Source of the DNA: Bacteroidales bacterium
GTDB lineage: Bacteria; Bacteroidota; Bacteroidia; Bacteroidales; JAAUTT01
NCBI GenBank assembly: GCA_025361285.1
Contig: JANYAP010000022.1
Span: 255 to 64,254, forward strand
Direction: 5' to 3'
DNA length: 64,000 nucleotides
Numbering within the stretch: the first letter of the stretch is position 1; every line of letters begins with the position of its first letter. Below the pieces are notes generated by a model that saw only the letters and a list, made by a program, of their open reading frames with translations, did no database searches and had not been told where the DNA came from. The position numbers were made by a program, and so were the translations under genes. Shown one piece after another: positions 8,500-15,910 of the stretch.

Positions 8500-9054
8500 T
8501 TACGGTTTTTTATTCGCAGCAAATCGTTCTAATAGAATTCGTTTTTTTTCTTCTTCGGAGAGTAATTTATAATCGTGCAGTATTGGGTTTGCGTATATTT
8601 TGCTTCTATATTTCTCGGTGGTCATTATTACTCGTGCCGGATTGCCAATTGCAACAGAATTGTCGGGTATTTTGCCTCTAACAATGGAACCAGCTCCTAT
8701 AATACAGTTGTTGCCAATGGTTGTGTTGGGCATAATAAGGCTATTCATTCCAATAAAGCAATTATTGCCAATTTTTATTGTGCCGAACAAATCCATATGC
8801 GGGTTTTCGTTATGGAAAAGGCATATACTGCCTTCGTGGGTAATTAGATAAACGTTTTCGGTAATTATTACATCGTTACCAATTTCGATAAGGTACGATT
8901 CGGGCGATAAGGAAAAGCAATGAATTCGGCAATTTTCGCCAATTTTCACGCCCATTTTTCGCCACATCCATACTCTAAACTTGTTGTTTAAGTGTTTAAA
9001 AAGGAATTTGATGATGTCTCTTTTAACTCGTTTCGCAACATTTATAATGTTCAT
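8500..9054 (-). CDS. hexapeptide-repeat (LbH) O-acetyltransferase
   Basis: 184 aa with consecutive hexapeptide repeats (IGNNCFIGMNSLIMPNTTIGNNCIIGAGSIVRGKIPDNSVAIGNPARV). Confidence 0.85.
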   Translation of the reverse strand: MNIINVAKRVKRDIIKFLFKHLNNKFRVWMWRKMGVKIGENCRIHCFSLSPESYLIEIGNDVIITENVYLITHEGSICLFHNENPHMDLFGTIKIGNNCFIGMNSLIMPNTTIGNNCIIGAGSIVRGKIPDNSVAIGNPARVIMTTEKYRSKIYANPILHDYKLLSEEEKKRILLERFAANKKP

Positions 9055-9076
9055 AATTAATATTAGTAATTGGTTA

Positions 9077-12000
9077 TTAGTCTTTTAAACAACGTACCGC
9101 AAATGCCATAACTTTAGTAAAATGCCATTGTATTCCGTCGGGCATTGAAGCGTTTCCTGCTGTATAAAACATGTGAAAGTGATAGCTATTATTTGGGTAG
9201 CCAGGGGTTGAAGTGGTTGTTTGAAAACAGCCCCATTGTAGAAATTCGGCGAATTTACCATCATTCATTCTATTGCCTGCGGGAAGCACAGTCATTCCAC
9301 TAGAGTTAGTTGCTTCTGCATTAGGCGATTGCCAATGGCTAGTTCCTGTTTCCTTTAATTTACCTCCAGCAACTGAAAGTCCTCCTAAAAAATCTATCAG
9401 AACCTCCCACTCGGTTTTTGCTGGCACATGCCAGCCAATAGGGCAAACATTTCTTGGATCGACAACCGTATAGTGGTTGTATAATCTACCATAAACAGGT
9501 ACATTAGCTTCTTCGCCATGGCAGGGCCAAGTGTATGCGGTATGATTTATTAAGGTGTCGCCTAGCACATTCAGACCTAGTGGGGTAGTTGTGGGTATTA
9601 GGTCGCCATTTTGGTAATGTGTTGTTGTGAGATTTTCGGCCATCCACGTTTGTGTGCCTACTGTAACTGTTTTGTACATATTCCCTTCAATATCGGTAAC
9701 GAAGTGCGTCATTATATTGTCGTATCGGGTTTGCAGGCTGGCTAATTGCGATTCAAGATTGAGATTATCGATATATGCTTTTGTTGCAATATCTTGATCG
9801 TTAACAGGCTCTGCCACATTTGTAATATTTTTGTTATTAGCGTTTAATCCGTTATTGGCTGAAATTGCATTGTTTGTTGTTATTGTACCAGTAAACGTTT
9901 TATTGTTAGTAATTGTTTGATCGTTGGATGAGTTTAAGTCGTCGGATTTATCGATATCCCAGTTAGAAAAGGTAATTGTGTTGCCATTGGTTATAGTTAA
10001 CTCATTGGTAGATAGCGACAACTGTTGTGTTTCGGTGGTTAAAAAATTGGGAGTAAAGTTTTCCCATTTACCTGATGTTGAGTTGAAATGCAATAATTGT
10101 GAGTTTAAAGGGCTAACTATTTTAATATCGGCAAAGCCAAAATCACTTAATAACGATGTTGGTTTATTAGTTATATTGCTCCACAATACTTGGGCTTGAC
10201 CGCTGTTTTGAAGGTTATTTTTTGAATAATAATCGGTTGCGAAACCATAGCCTGCTGATGCGTGATTTCCCCAAGAATAGGCTTCGTTCCAATCGGTTAT
10301 TTTGGAGGCTGTAATGCCATTTGCTGCGTGGGTTGTGCGCATTGCATCGGTAATTCCATAATTAGTAAGGGTTGTAGGTTTGTTGGTAATGTTGTTGAAA
10401 TGCACTTGCGCTTGCCCTGTGGTGTTTAGCTGAGTTTGAGTGTAAAAATTTGCCGCAGTTGCCGCATTAGCGTACCCTGCCGATGCTGAGTTTCCCCAAC
10501 CATAAGTGGTATTCCAATGTGCAGTTAGTGTGCTTGTAATTCCATTTGCAACGTGAGAAGTTGACATGGCATCGGAAATGCTGTATCCTGCAAGGGTTGT
10601 GGGTTTGTTTAGTATTGAACTCCAACTGCTGCTAATTACAGGCTTATTTGAAAGGTCGTTGTAACTGCCCGATGTTGCAACTGTTGCAAAAGTTGGCTTT
10701 AGCGTGAGTGAACTCCAAGTTCCATCGAATAGCAATTGCTTGTTCGAAAGGTCGTTGTAGTCTCCACTAAATGGCAATGGTTTGTTCGATAAATTGTTAT
10801 AACTTCCACTTGTTGCAACTGTTGCTAAAGGTACGCCTGTTAACGAGTTCCACGATCCACTAAATAGTGCAGGTTTATTCGATAAAGAGGCATAAGTGCC
10901 ATTAAACATGGTCGGCTTATTTGTTAAATCGGTGTAACTACCAGTAAAATAAATTGGTATGTTAATTAAATTGGTGTAACTGCCTGTTGAGGCTACATTT
11001 GCAAATGATGGCTTGCCTGTAATAGAAGCCCATGTTCCGAGTGGTAGCGATGGCTGATTTAATAAATCGTTATAACTGCCACTAAATAAGATTGGTTTGT
11101 TTGTTAAACTTGTGTAACTGCCGCTAGTTGCAATGGTAGAAAATGATGGTTTTCCTGTGATTAAAGTCCAAGTCCAACTTGTTAGTATTGGTTTGTTAGT
11201 TAAATCGTTATAGCTACCACTAAATATAGATGGTTTGCTTATTAAATCGTTATAGCTGCCACTTGTAGCAACGGTCGCAAATGTTGGTTTTAAGCTTAAT
11301 GAAGTCCATTTACCGTCGAAAAGTAATGGTTTATTAGTTAGGCTTGCATACGCGCCACTGAACAATATTGGTTTGTTTGATAAATCATCGTAATTGCCAC
11401 TAAATAAGGTTGGTATGTTTTTTAAAACATTATAATTGTTATTATATGCTACTGCCGACAGTGAAGGTTTACCACTTAATGAAGTCCATGTTCCATCGAA
11501 AAGATTAGGCTTCGAGGTTAAATTGTCATAATTTCCGCCGAAAAGGATTGGCTTGTTTAATAAATCGTTGTAACTACCTGTTAAAGAAACCGAAGAAAAT
11601 GTTGGGGTTCCAGTTAACGAATTCCAAAAGCCATCGAAAAGGACTGGTTTATCGGTTAAATTGGTGTAACTTCCACTAAAGTATGCCGTTGGAATGTTCG
11701 ACAATTCGTTGTAATTGGCAGTTGTGGCCACAGAAGCAAATTCTGGCTTATTTGCCAGCAAAGCCCATGTGCCGTCGATTGGTGCGGGTATATCGGATAA
11801 ATTGTTATAGCTTCCGCTTAGCGCGATGGCTTCCAAAGCAGGTTTTCCAGTAATTGTTACCCAATTTCCATCAACGAAAGTTGGTTTATTTATTAAATCG
11901 GTATAGTTTCCACTGAAGCCATTAGCTGTTTTGTCGGCATATAGTGCGTAAGGAACACTCAATAACTGGCTGGTTCCTAATTCGTTTCCATTTATGCTAA

Positions 12001-12307
12001 TGTTAATATAATACGAATCGTTGGCCCACACTATGTTAGCGAATGAACCAGATGTTTGAGTTCCGTTACCAATTTCGAGATTAATTATTCCGAATTGGTT
12101 TGTGGCAGGAAAATGCGATTCGCTATAAACTATTGTTCCATTGGCATTTCCTTTAAGAATACCAATTTGAATTTCTATAATTTTATTTGTAATGAGGCTA
12201 CCCGACGGATCGCGAACTATAGCCTGATATTTAAATGGTTGTGGATTTTGTGAATACACACCTAGTGCCAATAATATGGCAAAAACTGTATTTATAATTT
12301 TCTTCAT
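9077..12307 (-). CDS. secreted tail-fibre-like repeat protein with a C-terminal Fibrobacter succinogenes major paralogous (FISUMP, lectin-like) domain
   Basis: 1076 aa with a signal peptide (MKKIINTVFAILLALGVYSQ). About 30 short repeats of type FSGSYNDLxNKP / FDGTWxSLTGKP / FATVATSGSYxDL span nt ~10640-11950, followed by two GYGITDA...ANGIT...W..GY units. The last 205 aa (nt 9080-9694) carry YKTVTVGTQTWMAENL, YGRLYN, CPIGWHVPxxxEW, AGGKLK and LPAGNR. Confidence 0.85.
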   Translation of the reverse strand: MKKIINTVFAILLALGVYSQNPQPFKYQAIVRDPSGSLITNKIIEIQIGILKGNANGTIVYSESHFPATNQFGIINLEIGNGTQTSGSFANIVWANDSYYINISINGNELGTSQLLSVPYALYADKTANGFSGNYTDLINKPTFVDGNWVTITGKPALEAIALSGSYNNLSDIPAPIDGTWALLANKPEFASVATTANYNELSNIPTAYFSGSYTNLTDKPVLFDGFWNSLTGTPTFSSVSLTGSYNDLLNKPILFGGNYDNLTSKPNLFDGTWTSLSGKPSLSAVAYNNNYNVLKNIPTLFSGNYDDLSNKPILFSGAYASLTNKPLLFDGKWTSLSLKPTFATVATSGSYNDLISKPSIFSGSYNDLTNKPILTSWTWTLITGKPSFSTIATSGSYTSLTNKPILFSGSYNDLLNQPSLPLGTWASITGKPSFANVASTGSYTNLINIPIYFTGSYTDLTNKPTMFNGTYASLSNKPALFSGSWNSLTGVPLATVATSGSYNNLSNKPLPFSGDYNDLSNKQLLFDGTWSSLTLKPTFATVATSGSYNDLSNKPVISSSWSSILNKPTTLAGYSISDAMSTSHVANGITSTLTAHWNTTYGWGNSASAGYANAATAANFYTQTQLNTTGQAQVHFNNITNKPTTLTNYGITDAMRTTHAANGITASKITDWNEAYSWGNHASAGYGFATDYYSKNNLQNSGQAQVLWSNITNKPTSLLSDFGFADIKIVSPLNSQLLHFNSTSGKWENFTPNFLTTETQQLSLSTNELTITNGNTITFSNWDIDKSDDLNSSNDQTITNNKTFTGTITTNNAISANNGLNANNKNITNVAEPVNDQDIATKAYIDNLNLESQLASLQTRYDNIMTHFVTDIEGNMYKTVTVGTQTWMAENLTTTHYQNGDLIPTTTPLGLNVLGDTLINHTAYTWPCHGEEANVPVYGRLYNHYTVVDPRNVCPIGWHVPAKTEWEVLIDFLGGLSVAGGKLKETGTSHWQSPNAEATNSSGMTVLPAGNRMNDGKFAEFLQWGCFQTTTSTPGYPNNSYHFHMFYTAGNASMPDGIQWHFTKVMAFAVRCLKD

Positions 12308-12311
12308 AATA

Positions 12312-14909
12312 CTAAAGACCTAATTTAGTTTCTATTGCGGCAATTTTTCCTTCGAGAATAGCAATATTTGTCTTCAAAATATCGGCATAAGCTTTGGTGG
12401 CAGCATCGCTAGTGGCACTTGGGTTGGCAACATTTATAATGTTGGTATTGTTTGCATTCAATCCATTTGACGCCATAATTGTAGCCGATGCAGTTAGTGT
12501 TCCCGAAAATGTTTTATTTCCAGCTATAGTTTGGTCTCCAGTTAGCGTAACATCGTCGTTTTTATTTGTATCCCAGTTGCTATCGAAAGTAACAGTGTTA
12601 CCGTTTGTAATGGTTAAATCGTAACCCGACAGAGTTAAGGTTTGCGATTCGGCGGTTAAGTAGGCCGGCGATGAGTTTTCCCATTTACTTGTGGCGCTGT
12701 TGTATCGAAGTATTTGATTATTCGCTGGTGATGAGATGTTTACATCGGCAAAGCCAAAATTTTGAAATGTAGGTTTGTTAGTGATATTACCCCAATGCAC
12801 TAAAGCCTCGCCATTGGTTTGAAGGTTCGTTTTGGTGTAATAGTTTGTACCCGTTACGTACCCAGCCAATGCGTGATTTCCCCATGTGTGAGCGGCATCC
12901 CAATTTGTTATTTGGGTGCTTGTAATACCGTTGGCGATGTGCGATGTTTTCATTGCATCGGTAATGCCATAACCATCTACGGTTATAGGCTTGTTTGTAA
13001 TGTTACCCCAATGCACTAGTGCTTGAGTGCTTGTTTGTAAGTTTGTTTTGCTATAATAATTGGCAGCAAGCGCATATCCTTTTGTAGAATGGTCGCCCCA
13101 TCCATAAGCTGTGTTCCAATTAGTTATTTGAGTTGCGCTAATGCCGTTTGCAGCGTGTGTTGTAGAAATTGCGTCGGTAATTCCGTAGCCTGCTATAGTT
13201 GTGGGTTTACCTGTTAGCGAACTCCAGTTTCCATCGAAAAATGATGGTTTATTTAACAAGTCGTTGTAACTACCTGAAGATGCAACTGTTGCAAAAGCAG
13301 GTTTTGCAGTTAAGGACGTGTATTTACCATCGAATAGAACTGGCTGACCCGATAAGTCGGCGTAATTTCCGCTAAACAATTCTGGTTTGTTTATCAAATC
13401 GTTGTAGCTCCCGCTTGTAGCAACTGTTGCAAAAGTTGGTACGTTCGTTAACGACGTCCATTTACTATCGAACAGAACGGGCTTACCCGATAGGTCGGCG
13501 TAATTTCCACTAAACACGTAAGGTTTATTGGATAAATCGTTGTAACTACCACTAAATAAAACAGGTTTGTTTAATAAATCGTTGTAACTACCAGTTGTGG
13601 CTACTGTTGCAAAAGTGGGTTTTCCGGTTAATGCGCCCCACGTACCGTTGAAAATTGCAGGTTTATCGGATAAATCGTTATAGCTACCGCTAAATAATGT
13701 TGGTTGATCGGTTAAATCGGTGTATTTTCCGCTTGTGGCAACAGTAGCGAAAGTGGGTTTGCCAGAAAGTGAGACCCAGGTTCCGTTGAAAATTGTTGGT
13801 TTATCGGATAAATCGTTGTAGCTACCGCTAAAAATTGTTGGTTTGTTTAATAAATCGGTATAATTACCGCTAGTGGCTATTAATGCGAATGTTGGTGTTT
13901 CTGTTAACGATGAGTACTTTCCATCGAAAAGTGTTGGTTTGCCAGATAAATCGGCGTAATTACCACTAAACAAAGTGGGCTTATTTGACAAATCAGCGTA
14001 GTTGCCGCTAAATAGGGTTGGTAAATTGTTTAAGTCGGTATAGATGCCTGTTGTAGCTACTTTTGCAAGCACAGGTTTTCCGGTAAGTGTATTCCAAGTT
14101 CCATCGAAAAGAGCGGGTTTATTTGATAAATCGTTGTAACTGCCGCTAAACAAGGCTGGTTTATCTAACAAATCGTTGTAACTACCGCTAGTTGCTATTG
14201 TTGCAAAGGCAGGTTTGCCAGTAAGCGCTACCCAAGTGCCATTAAAAATTGTTGGCTTATCGGTTAAGTCGGTGTATTTGCCACTAAACAATACTGGTTT
14301 GTTTATCAAGTCGTTGTAGCTCCCGCTTGTAGCAACTGTTGCAAAAGTTGGTTTTCCGTTTAATGTTTCCCAATTTCCGTCGAAAGTTGGTCGGTCGAGT
14401 AAGTCGTTATAACTGCCACTAAATGCCACGTTCGAAAAATTAGGTTTCCCAGAAACATTTTCCCAAGTTCCATCAAATACAAATGGTTTGTTTTTCAAAT
14501 CGTTATAATTTCCACTAAAGCCATTTCCTGCTTTATCGGCGTATTTTGCGTACGGAACGCTTAGTAATTGATTTATACCTATTTCGATGCCATTTACACT
14601 TACTTTTACAAAATAAGGATTATTTGCCCAATTTATTGTCGAAAAATTGCCCGAAACTAGTGTTCCGTTGCCAATTTCTATATTAACCTGCCCAAATTGG
14701 TTAGCATCGGACGAGTGTGTTTCGGTAAATACCGATGTGCCAGAGCTAGAGCCTTGTAGAATATCGATTTGGATATCTACTTTTTGGCTGGCAATTAAAT
14801 TTCCAGCGTTATCGCGTACAATTGCCTGATACTTAAACGCATTGGGACTTTGTCCAAACATATTTGATGCCAGCAGAAGGATAGCAATGGTGTTGATTAA
14901 CTTTTTCAT
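12312..14909 (-). CDS. secreted tail-fibre-like repeat protein (paralogue of 9077-12307, with a coiled-coil C-terminus instead of a lectin domain)
   Basis: 865 aa with the same N-terminal domain (FKYQAIVRD...SVPYA) and the same YNDLxNKP repeat field (nt ~13230-14550). It has two GYGITDA units, an IINVANPSATSDAATKAYAD motif typical of phage fibre proteins, and a C-terminal heptad-like ILEGKIAAIETKL. Only 4 nt separate it from the next gene. Confidence 0.85.
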   Translation of the reverse strand: MKKLINTIAILLLASNMFGQSPNAFKYQAIVRDNAGNLIASQKVDIQIDILQGSSSGTSVFTETHSSDANQFGQVNIEIGNGTLVSGNFSTINWANNPYFVKVSVNGIEIGINQLLSVPYAKYADKAGNGFSGNYNDLKNKPFVFDGTWENVSGKPNFSNVAFSGSYNDLLDRPTFDGNWETLNGKPTFATVATSGSYNDLINKPVLFSGKYTDLTDKPTIFNGTWVALTGKPAFATIATSGSYNDLLDKPALFSGSYNDLSNKPALFDGTWNTLTGKPVLAKVATTGIYTDLNNLPTLFSGNYADLSNKPTLFSGNYADLSGKPTLFDGKYSSLTETPTFALIATSGNYTDLLNKPTIFSGSYNDLSDKPTIFNGTWVSLSGKPTFATVATSGKYTDLTDQPTLFSGSYNDLSDKPAIFNGTWGALTGKPTFATVATTGSYNDLLNKPVLFSGSYNDLSNKPYVFSGNYADLSGKPVLFDSKWTSLTNVPTFATVATSGSYNDLINKPELFSGNYADLSGQPVLFDGKYTSLTAKPAFATVASSGSYNDLLNKPSFFDGNWSSLTGKPTTIAGYGITDAISTTHAANGISATQITNWNTAYGWGDHSTKGYALAANYYSKTNLQTSTQALVHWGNITNKPITVDGYGITDAMKTSHIANGITSTQITNWDAAHTWGNHALAGYVTGTNYYTKTNLQTNGEALVHWGNITNKPTFQNFGFADVNISSPANNQILRYNSATSKWENSSPAYLTAESQTLTLSGYDLTITNGNTVTFDSNWDTNKNDDVTLTGDQTIAGNKTFSGTLTASATIMASNGLNANNTNIINVANPSATSDAATKAYADILKTNIAILEGKIAAIETKLGL

Positions 14910-14943
14910 GTTATAATAATTGATATAGAATGAGTTATAATAG

Positions 14944-15435
14944 TTACTGATTTATTATTTTAAATGTTTCAATGAGTTTTTTATTCTGAAGTATCTGCAA
15001 TATATACGAGCCACTTGTAAGGTTTCGGAAGTCGATTTGTTCGATGCTTGAACTTATATTTTTCTGAATATTAACACTTCCCGTAGTATTATAAACAATA
15101 TACTCAAATCCCTTATAGTTGGTGGTTTCAACTTTAAGAAATACTATATCGTTTGTGGGGTTTGGGTAGGCTGTTACTGAAATTGCTATGTTTGCAATTT
15201 CGCCAATCGATGTAACAATTAGCTTTGTTTGGTGAAAACCCTGGGTGAGAGTTAAGTTGTTGTCGTTGTTACCTATAGTTTCGGTAAAGGCTTCTCCTAA
15301 AGTCCAACTTACTAAATATTCGGAATTTTTGTATTCGTCGCCTGCCGATGCAATTACTTGTGATGTAGGGTTTTGACTAAAACTATTGACTGATAAAATT
15401 ACACTTAAGCTAAGAACGATTATTACCGATTTCAT
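14944..15435 (-). CDS. small secreted protein with a T9SS type-A C-terminal sorting domain
   Basis: The C-terminus reads YPNPTNDIVFLKV...GSYILQI...KIINQ. Signal peptide MKSVIIVLSLSVILSVNSFSQ follows M19 of the tracked ORF. A -7 box at 15487-15494 overlaps the tracked start, so the ATG at 15435 is preferred. Confidence 0.75.
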   Translation of the reverse strand: MKSVIIVLSLSVILSVNSFSQNPTSQVIASAGDEYKNSEYLVSWTLGEAFTETIGNNDNNLTLTQGFHQTKLIVTSIGEIANIAISVTAYPNPTNDIVFLKVETTNYKGFEYIVYNTTGSVNIQKNISSSIEQIDFRNLTSGSYILQILQNKKLIETFKIINQ

Positions 15436-15486: not shown

Positions 15487-15494
15487 CAAAATTA
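15487..15494 (-). promoter_or_regulatory. -7 box TAATTTTG (minus strand) for the fibre operon
   Basis: Matches TAnnTTTG about 50 nt upstream of the ATG at 15435. Confidence 0.4.
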
Positions 15495-15699: not shown

Positions 15700-15910
15700 G
15701 GGGCTTCTCCGTTCCGACCTGCGTCGGAATGACAGTAGTGGCGTTGTCATCCCGACTTAGTAGTGGCGTTGTCATCCCGACGAAGGTCGGGATCTCAAAC
15801 GAGCGAGTGATATTAATGAAATAGCCGATTCTATATGGATTACCTCCATTTAGGGCTTCGCCGTTCCGACCTACGTCGGAATGACAGCATACGTCGGAAT
15901 AACAGCATAC
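15700..15910. repeat. composite palindromic intergenic element (hairpin A TTCCGAC-N4-GTCGGAA, hairpin B ATCCCGAC-N4-GTCGGGAT), expanded copy
   Basis: Two A hairpins (15700-15735, 15852-15887), one B hairpin (15761-15800) and duplicated half-sites. The same architecture occurs in inverted orientation at 63718-63896. Confidence 0.8.

Follow-up and report, generated by a model that had tools for sequence, protein, structure and literature searches.

The fibre operon described here lies within a 64,000-nucleotide (nt) stretch of DNA from a sediment Bacteroidota bacterium (Bacteroidales bacterium, GenBank assembly GCA_025361285.1, contig JANYAP010000022.1, positions 255 to 64,254), which was analysed as a whole and is called the window. 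The operon is composed of three minus-strand open reading frames (ORFs): the gene of a small protein of 163 amino acids (aa), named s, followed by the genes of two large fibre-like proteins, fibre A (865 aa) and fibre B (1076 aa). The gaps are 34 nt between s and fibre A and 4 nt between fibre A and fibre B, and the co-directional arrangement described in an initial annotation of the sequence is confirmed by the ORF positions (Table 1). Alignment with 54 homologues places the start of s at an ATG (MK); an upstream TTG would yield a protein of 181 aa. It represents a cassette, spread across the Bacteroidota phylum, for putative surface fibres of the cell, of which no earlier description was found.

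The s protein is a small cargo of a type IX secretion system (T9SS). Alignments of its homologues define a signal peptide, a mini-domain of 45-49 aa, a linker of about 15-16 aa and a C-terminal domain (CTD) of type A; the CTD aside, mature s consists of mini-domain and linker only. The CTD scores 42.6 bits against PF18962 (cut-off 27) and 38.6 bits against TIGR04183 (cut-off 23), and the N-terminus is hydrophobic and followed by Q21, as in the Sec signal peptide of a type-A cargo. Neither fibre protein matches PF18962, TIGR04183 or TIGR04131 at E <= 0.1, which bears out the initial assignment of a T9SS CTD to the first gene alone. In the AlphaFold2 (AF2) model of the homologue at locus L065 the CTD is folded like the one of NucA in a complex of the T9SS translocon (8glk_D, TM-score 0.82). 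The mini-domain, which is matched by no model of Pfam or NCBIfam, is predicted in the AF2 model of s to be a three-stranded beta meander (pLDDT 54-80) and has the consensus AQEV...GG......G..S.T.GE.V..T.......LTQGFQQ among s homologues.

The mini-domain family is large. A HMMER search with its profile over 1.84 billion cluster representatives returned 10,249 representatives with E <= 1e-3, of which 1,908 reach E <= 1e-10. Among the best 150 of these 10,249 matches the median length is 160 aa, the mini-domain occupying about residues 20-68, and no natural fusion of mini-domain and fibre N-domain (Rosetta stone) occurs. Other arrangements were observed as well, among P0141, P0183, P0208, P0164 and L030:2598-3980: the mini-domain is found at the N-terminus of T9SS cargo of 450-920 aa, and some small proteins carry two copies in tandem.

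Fibres A and B have in common a signal peptide, an N-domain of 108 aa, a shaft of repeats, two GYGITDA units and a distal segment which resembles phage receptor-binding proteins. The shared signal peptide, N-terminal domain and roughly thirty repeats had been recognised from the start; the count of repeats anchored on the residues KP is 29-31 per fibre, covering approximately residues 130-570. Their spacing of 14/14/18 aa gives a super-repeat of 46 aa (138 nt) in both fibres. The GYGITDA units, initially described as two units of about 67 aa, are indeed two in each fibre, with a spacing of 72-75 aa. The FISUMP domain proposed for the end of fibre B scores above the cut-offs of both PF09603 and TIGR02145; it starts at residue 874 or 881, depending on the model, and ends at residue 1076. 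Searches of PDB sequences gave no meaningful relatives for fibre A or for the FISUMP tip.

Fibre A carries no such tip and its terminal Ile/Leu heptads are compatible with a coiled coil. The same type of ending (...KLGL or QLGL, 22 aa past the ATKAY motif) is present in the proteins P0001, P0002 and P0003 and in the orthologous operons L104 and L105, and it is a conserved ending, not a truncation. The gene order s, KLGL-ended fibre, FISUMP fibre is also found in GCA_025350365 (163/608/780 aa) and GCA_052915925 (180/561/777 aa); since it recurs in two further genomes, the operon is a conserved unit and the tip-less end of fibre A is taken to be functional. The two fibres are 58% identical across their shared length, and the initial description of paralogues that differ by a swap of the tip therefore does not hold: what fibre A has in place of a tip is the conserved coiled coil.

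Table 1. Features of the fibre operon and its surroundings (positions in the window).
Feature	Position	Strand	Evidence
Gene s, mini T9SS cargo, 163 aa	14944..15435	-	ORF; PF18962 and TIGR04183 above cut-offs
s mini-domain, residues 24-72 (TSQVIASAG...SWTLGE...LTQGFHQTKL)	15220..15366	-	Conserved block in alignments of homologues
s type-A T9SS C-terminal sorting domain, residues 89-163	14947..15171	-	PF18962, TIGR04183; AF2 pLDDT >95
Gene of fibre A, 865 aa, without CTD and without tip domain	12312..14909	-	ORF; family-model searches
Fibre A signal peptide (residues 1-19) and MAT-like base domain (20-128)	14526..14909	-	NF053851 25-31 bits, cut-off 60
Fibre A shaft, 29 tail-fibre repeats	13194..14525	-	Repeat analysis; PHROG matches; phage tblastn matches
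Fibre A, two 72-aa GYGITDA...ANGIT...W.GY units	12762..13193	-	Direct-repeat family D6
Fibre A distal shaft with phage receptor-binding-protein motifs (DQTIAGNKTFSG; I.NVA.P....DAATKAYAD)	12381..12761	-	PF18338 BppL_N 28.6 bits, cut-off 25.8
Fibre A C-terminal putative coiled coil, 22 aa (ILKTNIAILEGKIAAIETKLGL)	12315..12380	-	Ile/Leu spaced 4-3-4-3-4
Gene of fibre B, 1076 aa, without CTD, with FISUMP tip	9077..12307	-	ORF; family-model searches
Fibre B signal peptide and MAT-like base domain	11924..12307	-	NF053851 33-39 bits; N-domain identity with fibre A 56%
Fibre B shaft, about 29-31 tail-fibre repeats	10592..11923	-	Repeat analysis; PHROG matches
Fibre B, two 72-75-aa GYGITDA-type units	10151..10591	-	Repeat analysis
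Fibre B distal shaft (Phage_T7_tail-like and ATKAY motifs) and putative coiled-coil neck	9689..10150	-	PF03906 20.4 bits, below cut-off; rest from sequence
Fibre B FISUMP tip, residues 874-1076	9080..9688	-	PF09603 109 bits (cut-off 33.9); TIGR02145 98.5 bits (cut-off 41.65)
Only long exact repeat, 42 nt, first copy	13399..13440		Second copy at 14311-14352, 912 nt away, in frame
Candidate Bacteroidota -7 promoter box TAATTTTG	15487..15494	-	52 nt upstream of the s ATG; read from the sequence

The N-domain of the fibres shows a weak, consistent similarity to the base domain of the mosaic adhesive trimer (MAT) fibres of Bdellovibrio bacteriovorus (Caulton et al. 2024, Nat Microbiol, PMC10769870; NCBIfam NF053851, Bdello_MAT_N). 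All 26 N-domains tested match this model, the best with an E value of 1e-13, and the relationship to the MAT base domain is read as distant homology, short of membership by the NCBI rule. In the AF2 model of a homologue it is predicted to be a beta sandwich (pLDDT 92-97). A word-seeded search gave at least 485 proteins with this N-domain, and at least 588 loci were found in GTDB species genomes. In a set of 301 genomes, sampled evenly across the Bacteroidota phylum and covering 144 genera, the fibre N-domain is present in 90 genomes and 57 genera.

The domains found behind this N-domain are FISUMP, Peptidase_S74, DUF1566, collagen, C1q, Kelch, YadA-head, fn3 and phage Collar; the tip models include PF13884 (S74), PF09603, PF07603, PF01391 and PF00386, so that variable tips follow one base domain, as in the MAT family. 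S74, collagen, C1q and YadA are obligate trimer modules, and because relatives carry them fibres A and B are probably trimeric as well. A third fibre paralogue of the same genome has its own locus on contig C200 (L003:535-2454), where the gene of a 165-aa s-like protein with a type-A CTD is followed by that of a 464-aa fibre with the same N-domain and an unrelated C-terminal half without family match.

The shaft repeats match PHROGs 17509 (E 2e-56), 31472 (E 1e-45) and 9729 (tail fibre, E 1e-13). By tblastn they match annotated tail fibres of Ralstonia phage phiRSL1, Synechococcus phage S-H34, Vibrio phage CHOED, where the protein is annotated as 'tail fiber repeat family protein', and Pseudomonas phage PAC2, with a further match to a structural protein of PA5oct; identity in the phage matches is 31-43% over 400-500 residues. 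By these similarities the shaft repeats are homologous to phage tail-fibre repeats, as had been supposed at first sight of the motifs.

The homology of repeats and distal motifs to phage tail fibres could also be taken to mean that the operon is a prophage or tailocin remnant with decaying tail fibres. This is very improbable and is effectively refuted by the gene context. The flanks are formed by a biosynthetic cluster, histidine kinases and housekeeping genes, among which no phage structural, lysis or integration gene is present, no tRNA gene was found in the window, and the GC content of the operon is that of its surroundings, with no compositional break. In addition, none of the three ORFs is disrupted, each fibre starts with a Sec signal peptide, a feature absent from phage fibres, and the cassette is kept in 57 of the 144 genera sampled. 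With many tips behind one N-domain and flanks free of phage genes, the initial view is upheld that these are chromosomal genes of the cell for fibres or adhesins, made up of tail-fibre modules whose tips can be exchanged.

The association of s with the fibres is evident from gene linkage. A genome-wide search of the source genome finds exactly two full-length s genes, each heading a fibre locus, all other matches being to the CTD only. In other genomes 93 fibre genes in 80 loci could be evaluated; an s homologue is located immediately upstream of 53 of them, and 16 more trail another fibre gene in a tandem array. In the reverse direction, a fibre N-domain is found 150-900 nt downstream of 72 out of 77 mini-domains. 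In the 301-genome sample 52 of 56 mini-domain matches are, by our count, no further than about 2.5 kb from a fibre N-domain among those listed, and the 32 genomes with a mini-domain are all fibre-positive (hypergeometric p = 2e-19). Where s and fibre are in the same frame, the gap is mostly 2-5 codons and reaches 16 in one case. Judged by this linkage across the phylum, s is a real functional partner of the fibres, and the partnership once suggested for the small CTD protein finds support.

Distances between mini-domains correlate with those between the adjacent N-domains (r = 0.68), a value reached in none of 2000 permutations. Two classes can be distinguished on either side, SWTLGE...LTQGFHQ and GG.ASGSGG..SYSVGQ...QGVQQPYE for the mini-domain and FKYQAV.RD and KMSYQAVIRN...MQISI for the N-domain, and the two mini-domain classes pair nearly consistently with the two N-domain classes, with L102 as the one exception. 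Both class pairings coexist in genomes G079, G207 and G283. The correlation of distances is compatible with co-evolving partners. In G207 one locus (L095:662-1873) has an s-like gene downstream of the fibre gene, followed by a 403-aa protein with a signal peptide and no NCBIfam match, which could be an outer-membrane protein.

The source genome encodes the T9SS sortase PorU (NF033707, 1284 bits) and the translocon protein SprA (TIGR04189, 2618 bits). In the sample, PorU is present in 85 of the 90 fibre-bearing genomes and in 128 of the 211 fibre-less ones (Fisher p = 2e-10). A reading of the five PorU-less fibre-bearing genomes as devoid of T9SS was rejected, as all five carry SprA; a T9SS marker (PorU or SprA) is thus present in 90 out of 90 fibre-bearing genomes.

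Genomes G179 and G259, from another Bacteroidia family, contain at four loci a mini-domain protein with a type-B CTD (TIGR04131, 44-77 bits, cut-off 35), and the following gene belongs to the PorP/SprF family (TIGR03519, 162-176 bits). This pair is found immediately downstream of the fibre genes and not upstream (L106:7015-8508, L107:220-1616, L108:2797-4244 and L109:3875-5837). Type-A CTDs are recognised by the translocon and cleaved by PorU, and the new C-terminus is joined to anionic lipopolysaccharide (A-LPS), while type-B cargo remains with its PorP/SprF partner. Two types of T9SS signal on one stub beside the fibres would otherwise be hard to explain, and T9SS sorting of the stub is therefore likely to be the purpose of the partnership.

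From these data a mechanism can be proposed, in which s supplies the sorting domain in trans and its stub carries the fibres to the cell surface or docks them there; we give this chain as a whole about an even chance of being correct. Fibres A and B, each with a MAT-like base, a shaft of tail-fibre repeats and a distal end resembling receptor-binding proteins, would be exported by Sec, fibre A ending in a bare coiled coil and fibre B in a coiled-coil neck with a FISUMP head for ligand binding. The s protein would pass through the T9SS by virtue of its type-A CTD, and the PorU sortase would remove the CTD and link the stub of about 65 aa (mini-domain and linker) to anionic LPS. The mature stub would then bind the base domain of the folded, probably trimeric fibre, and would either bring it through the SprA translocon or dock it on the surface. 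The variable tips would face outward, for adhesion to glycans or other cells. In a more specific form, the mini-domain would be a dedicated adaptor by which the T9SS exports and anchors proteins without a CTD through a signal in trans, by A-LPS for type A and by PorP/SprF for type B, the stub gripping the MAT-like base and trimeric fibres hitch-hiking through SprA. This specific form is a tentative proposal, to which we give somewhat less than an even chance.

Several points weigh against this mechanism. Of the evaluable fibre genes 24/93 have neither s nor a fibre gene upstream. Among the best 150 mini-domain representatives, nine are larger proteins, T9SS cargo which start with the mini-domain and continue with SprB repeats, fn3 or dockerin plus a CTD; because the mini-domain also heads such non-fibre cargo, it may be a general N-terminal docking module which is not specific for fibres. 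The co-inheritance of a tight cassette could produce a mirror-tree signal without physical contact between its products. The relationship to the MAT base domain is itself distant, the matches to NF053851 scoring 25-46 bits against a cut-off of 60 and covering only model positions 3-86, approximately, of 162.

Structure prediction was applied to locus L065, where s and the fibre N-domain are naturally in frame, by modelling the read-through as a single chain with AF2 (block-diagonal multiple sequence alignment of 81 rows, 15 paired and 66 unpaired). The N-domain and the CTD are confident in this model, and the mini-domain, at pLDDT 41-82 and an overall pTM of 0.55, is no better than in s alone (54-80), which gives the proposed binding no support; as a test this is weak, being a monomer with 15 paired rows and no predicted aligned error. 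Besides the CTD match, a Foldseek search of the L065 fusion model against the PDB gave only generic tandems of Ig, fn3 and macroglobulin domains with a root-mean-square deviation above 20 Å. Finally, the MAT fibres of Bdellovibrio are located on the surface of an organism without T9SS (PMC10769870), so their base domain needs none.

These observations can be accommodated if s is tied to the fibres in another capacity than that of carrier or anchor, such as assembly factor, cap, spacer of the surface coat or second ligand-binding element, with the fibres using the T9SS-independent route of the Bdellovibrio MAT fibres. The T9SS-less Bdellovibrio fibres with their homologous base domain, the fibre genes without s or another fibre upstream, the lack of any sign of mini-domain ordering beside the N-domain and the larger non-fibre cargo all agree with such a role. 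It leaves unexplained, however, why the partner should be no more than a 45-aa stub and a sorting domain, why both type-A and type-B sorting, the latter with PorP/SprF, have been recruited to the same stub, and why all sampled fibre-bearing genomes have a T9SS. We regard a role of this kind as unlikely, though it has to be reckoned with. For sorting in trans, a possible target is offered by the MAT base domain, of which it was written that it 'would presumably tightly bind a surface element', the identity of the element being left open by the authors (PMC10769870).

As for the division of labour between the two fibres, A and B might form one composite structure, end to end or as heterotrimers, in which the coiled-coil end of A serves as a joint or as a device for stoichiometry and the FISUMP head is provided by B only. 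The order A then B and the KLGL ending are kept in three genomes, fibre A has no ligand-binding tip, and in the shaft-distal region (window 12381-13193 vs 9767-10591; L104 and L105) A and B of the same genome are 60-69% identical, while B orthologues are 49-52% identical, a hint at co-evolution or gene conversion. On the other hand each protein has a complete signal peptide and base domain, as expected for independent fibres, and for KLGL-ended homologues such as P0001 there are only short contigs; a composite fibre is rather improbable. The N-domains of the window and L104 follow orthology (A-A 72%, B-B 68%, vs 56% for A-B), and because the shaft-distal region differs from them in having A and B closer within a genome than B orthologues are to each other, there is a hint, on thin evidence, of gene conversion between the tandem paralogues in the shaft.

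The repeats of the shaft had been thought to be near-identical in their DNA. Most copies are 60-80% identical at the DNA level, and exact repeats reach at most 42 nt within the fibre A gene, 26 nt between the A and B genes and 16 nt within the B gene, the single 42-nt repeat being the only long one, so that the description of the DNA as highly repetitive is not supported. Shafts of the orthologous operons in GCA_025350365 and GCA_052915925 have 10-17 repeats as compared to the 29-31 found here, and repeat number therefore changes over evolutionary time. To this extent the length variation expected earlier is borne out, but ongoing recombinational variation finds no support. The locus is present in four sediment metagenome runs, whose unitigs break exactly at the 42-nt repeat. 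Joints that would mark a deletion or a duplication are absent from the contigs of these runs, which cannot exclude rare variants.

One candidate joint was rejected. A contig of 261 nt (depth 3.2x, runs X1-X3) joins position 13872 back to 13603 with 6 extra letters, which would represent an in-frame duplication of 276 nt (two 138-nt units); only 28 nt match on one side, followed by unlike sequence, and the contig probably represents another organism's related gene. Diversity-generating retroelements are reported to target FISUMP and DUF1566 (PMC11661182). Such an element acting on the FISUMP tip was likewise rejected, as the window contains no second copy of FISUMP-coding DNA and the genome no intact reverse transcriptase; the sole reverse transcriptase fragment in the genome, on contig C83, contains a stop codon.

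Downstream of the fibre operon are found genes for an LbH acetyltransferase, a polysaccharide deacetylase, a VOC-family protein and an AsnB-type amidotransferase, and upstream those for two histidine kinases, FtsX and a methyltransferase. In the region 8500-9076 of the window, the LbH acetyltransferase gene begins 22 nt past the fibre B stop on the same strand. As a terminator could not be accommodated in this spacing, one transcript may cover both the fibre operon and the downstream carrier-protein/amidotransferase cluster; the link to this biosynthetic cluster is not conserved, the orthologous operon L105 having a different downstream gene. A search for the full -33/-7 promoter pattern gave no match at the candidate -7 box upstream of s, and promoter and terminator scans gave counts at chance level. 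A composite GC-rich hairpin element with CTGTCATTCCGAC...GTCGGAAC repeats (window 15700-15910) takes up the whole spacer that separates the promoter region of s from the REC-HK gene upstream.

Taken together, the initial annotation was right in its observations and in part of its interpretation, and it missed the MAT homology, the third paralogue locus and the mini-domain of 45 aa. If sorting in trans is correct, a separate minimal partner bearing the CTD would represent a new mode of T9SS substrate recruitment. The stub would also be a candidate for the surface element bound by MAT base domains, in the Bacteroidota branch, and would offer a testable idea of what keeps MAT-type fibres attached to the cell. 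The scale is considerable, with a mini-domain family of about 10,000 sequence clusters and fibres in about 40% of the Bacteroidota genera sampled. Fibres with swappable lectin-like, collagen, C1q and S74 tips are likely to be major determinants of adhesion to particles, glycans and cells in sediment, aquatic and gut Bacteroidota, and they document a large-scale domestication of phage tail-fibre modules by cells. Full-text literature searches gave no description of MAT-like fibres in Bacteroidota or of a T9SS signal acting in trans.

It is possible to place the cassette among known systems by what it shares with each. With the phage tail fibres of phiRSL1, CHOED, S-H34 and PAC2 and with PHROG 9729 it shares homologous 14-aa repeats, and with the receptor-binding proteins of the BppL type from lactococcal phages the BppL_N and T7-tail-like motifs just before the tip. 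In distinction to phage fibres the genes are chromosomal, and a Sec signal peptide and a cellular base domain replace the domain for virion attachment. The trimeric autotransporter adhesins (YadA) are likewise long trimeric fibres, the trimer being putative here, with modular heads and stalks, and PF05658 YadA head repeats are present in some members of the family; in contrast to the YadA family, the fibres have no C-terminal membrane-anchor barrel and use another export route. Classical T9SS cargo, such as the gingipains of P. gingivalis (type A) and SprB/SprF of F. johnsoniae (type B), resembles s in its bona fide type-A CTD and the relatives of s in the type-B CTD with PorP/SprF. To our knowledge, known T9SS cargo carries passenger and CTD on one polypeptide. 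The passenger of s has no more than about 65 aa, and the large, putatively surface-exposed proteins encoded next to it have no CTD, which implies that the sorting signal is supplied in trans.

The closest parallel is with the MAT fibres of Bdellovibrio. In both, a signal peptide leads into a conserved beta-rich base domain, although the two base domains are only distantly similar, and both have a long shaft of elements like those of phage tail fibres and mix-and-match C-terminal tips, with S74 and non-S74 subtypes both occurring in the Bacteroidota family, and both are present as several paralogues per genome. The Bacteroidota N-domain differs in matching the first half of the MAT_N model only, below the cut-off; furthermore the host is non-predatory, the shaft has the 14/14/18-aa repeat and the tip is FISUMP or none. 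There is also the tight coupling of the genes to that of a mini T9SS-CTD protein, a partner that is impossible in Bdellovibrio with its lack of T9SS. The architecture of MAT fibres and their mix-and-match logic are thus known, and what is new in the Bacteroidota is a variant of MAT-like fibres coupled to the T9SS.

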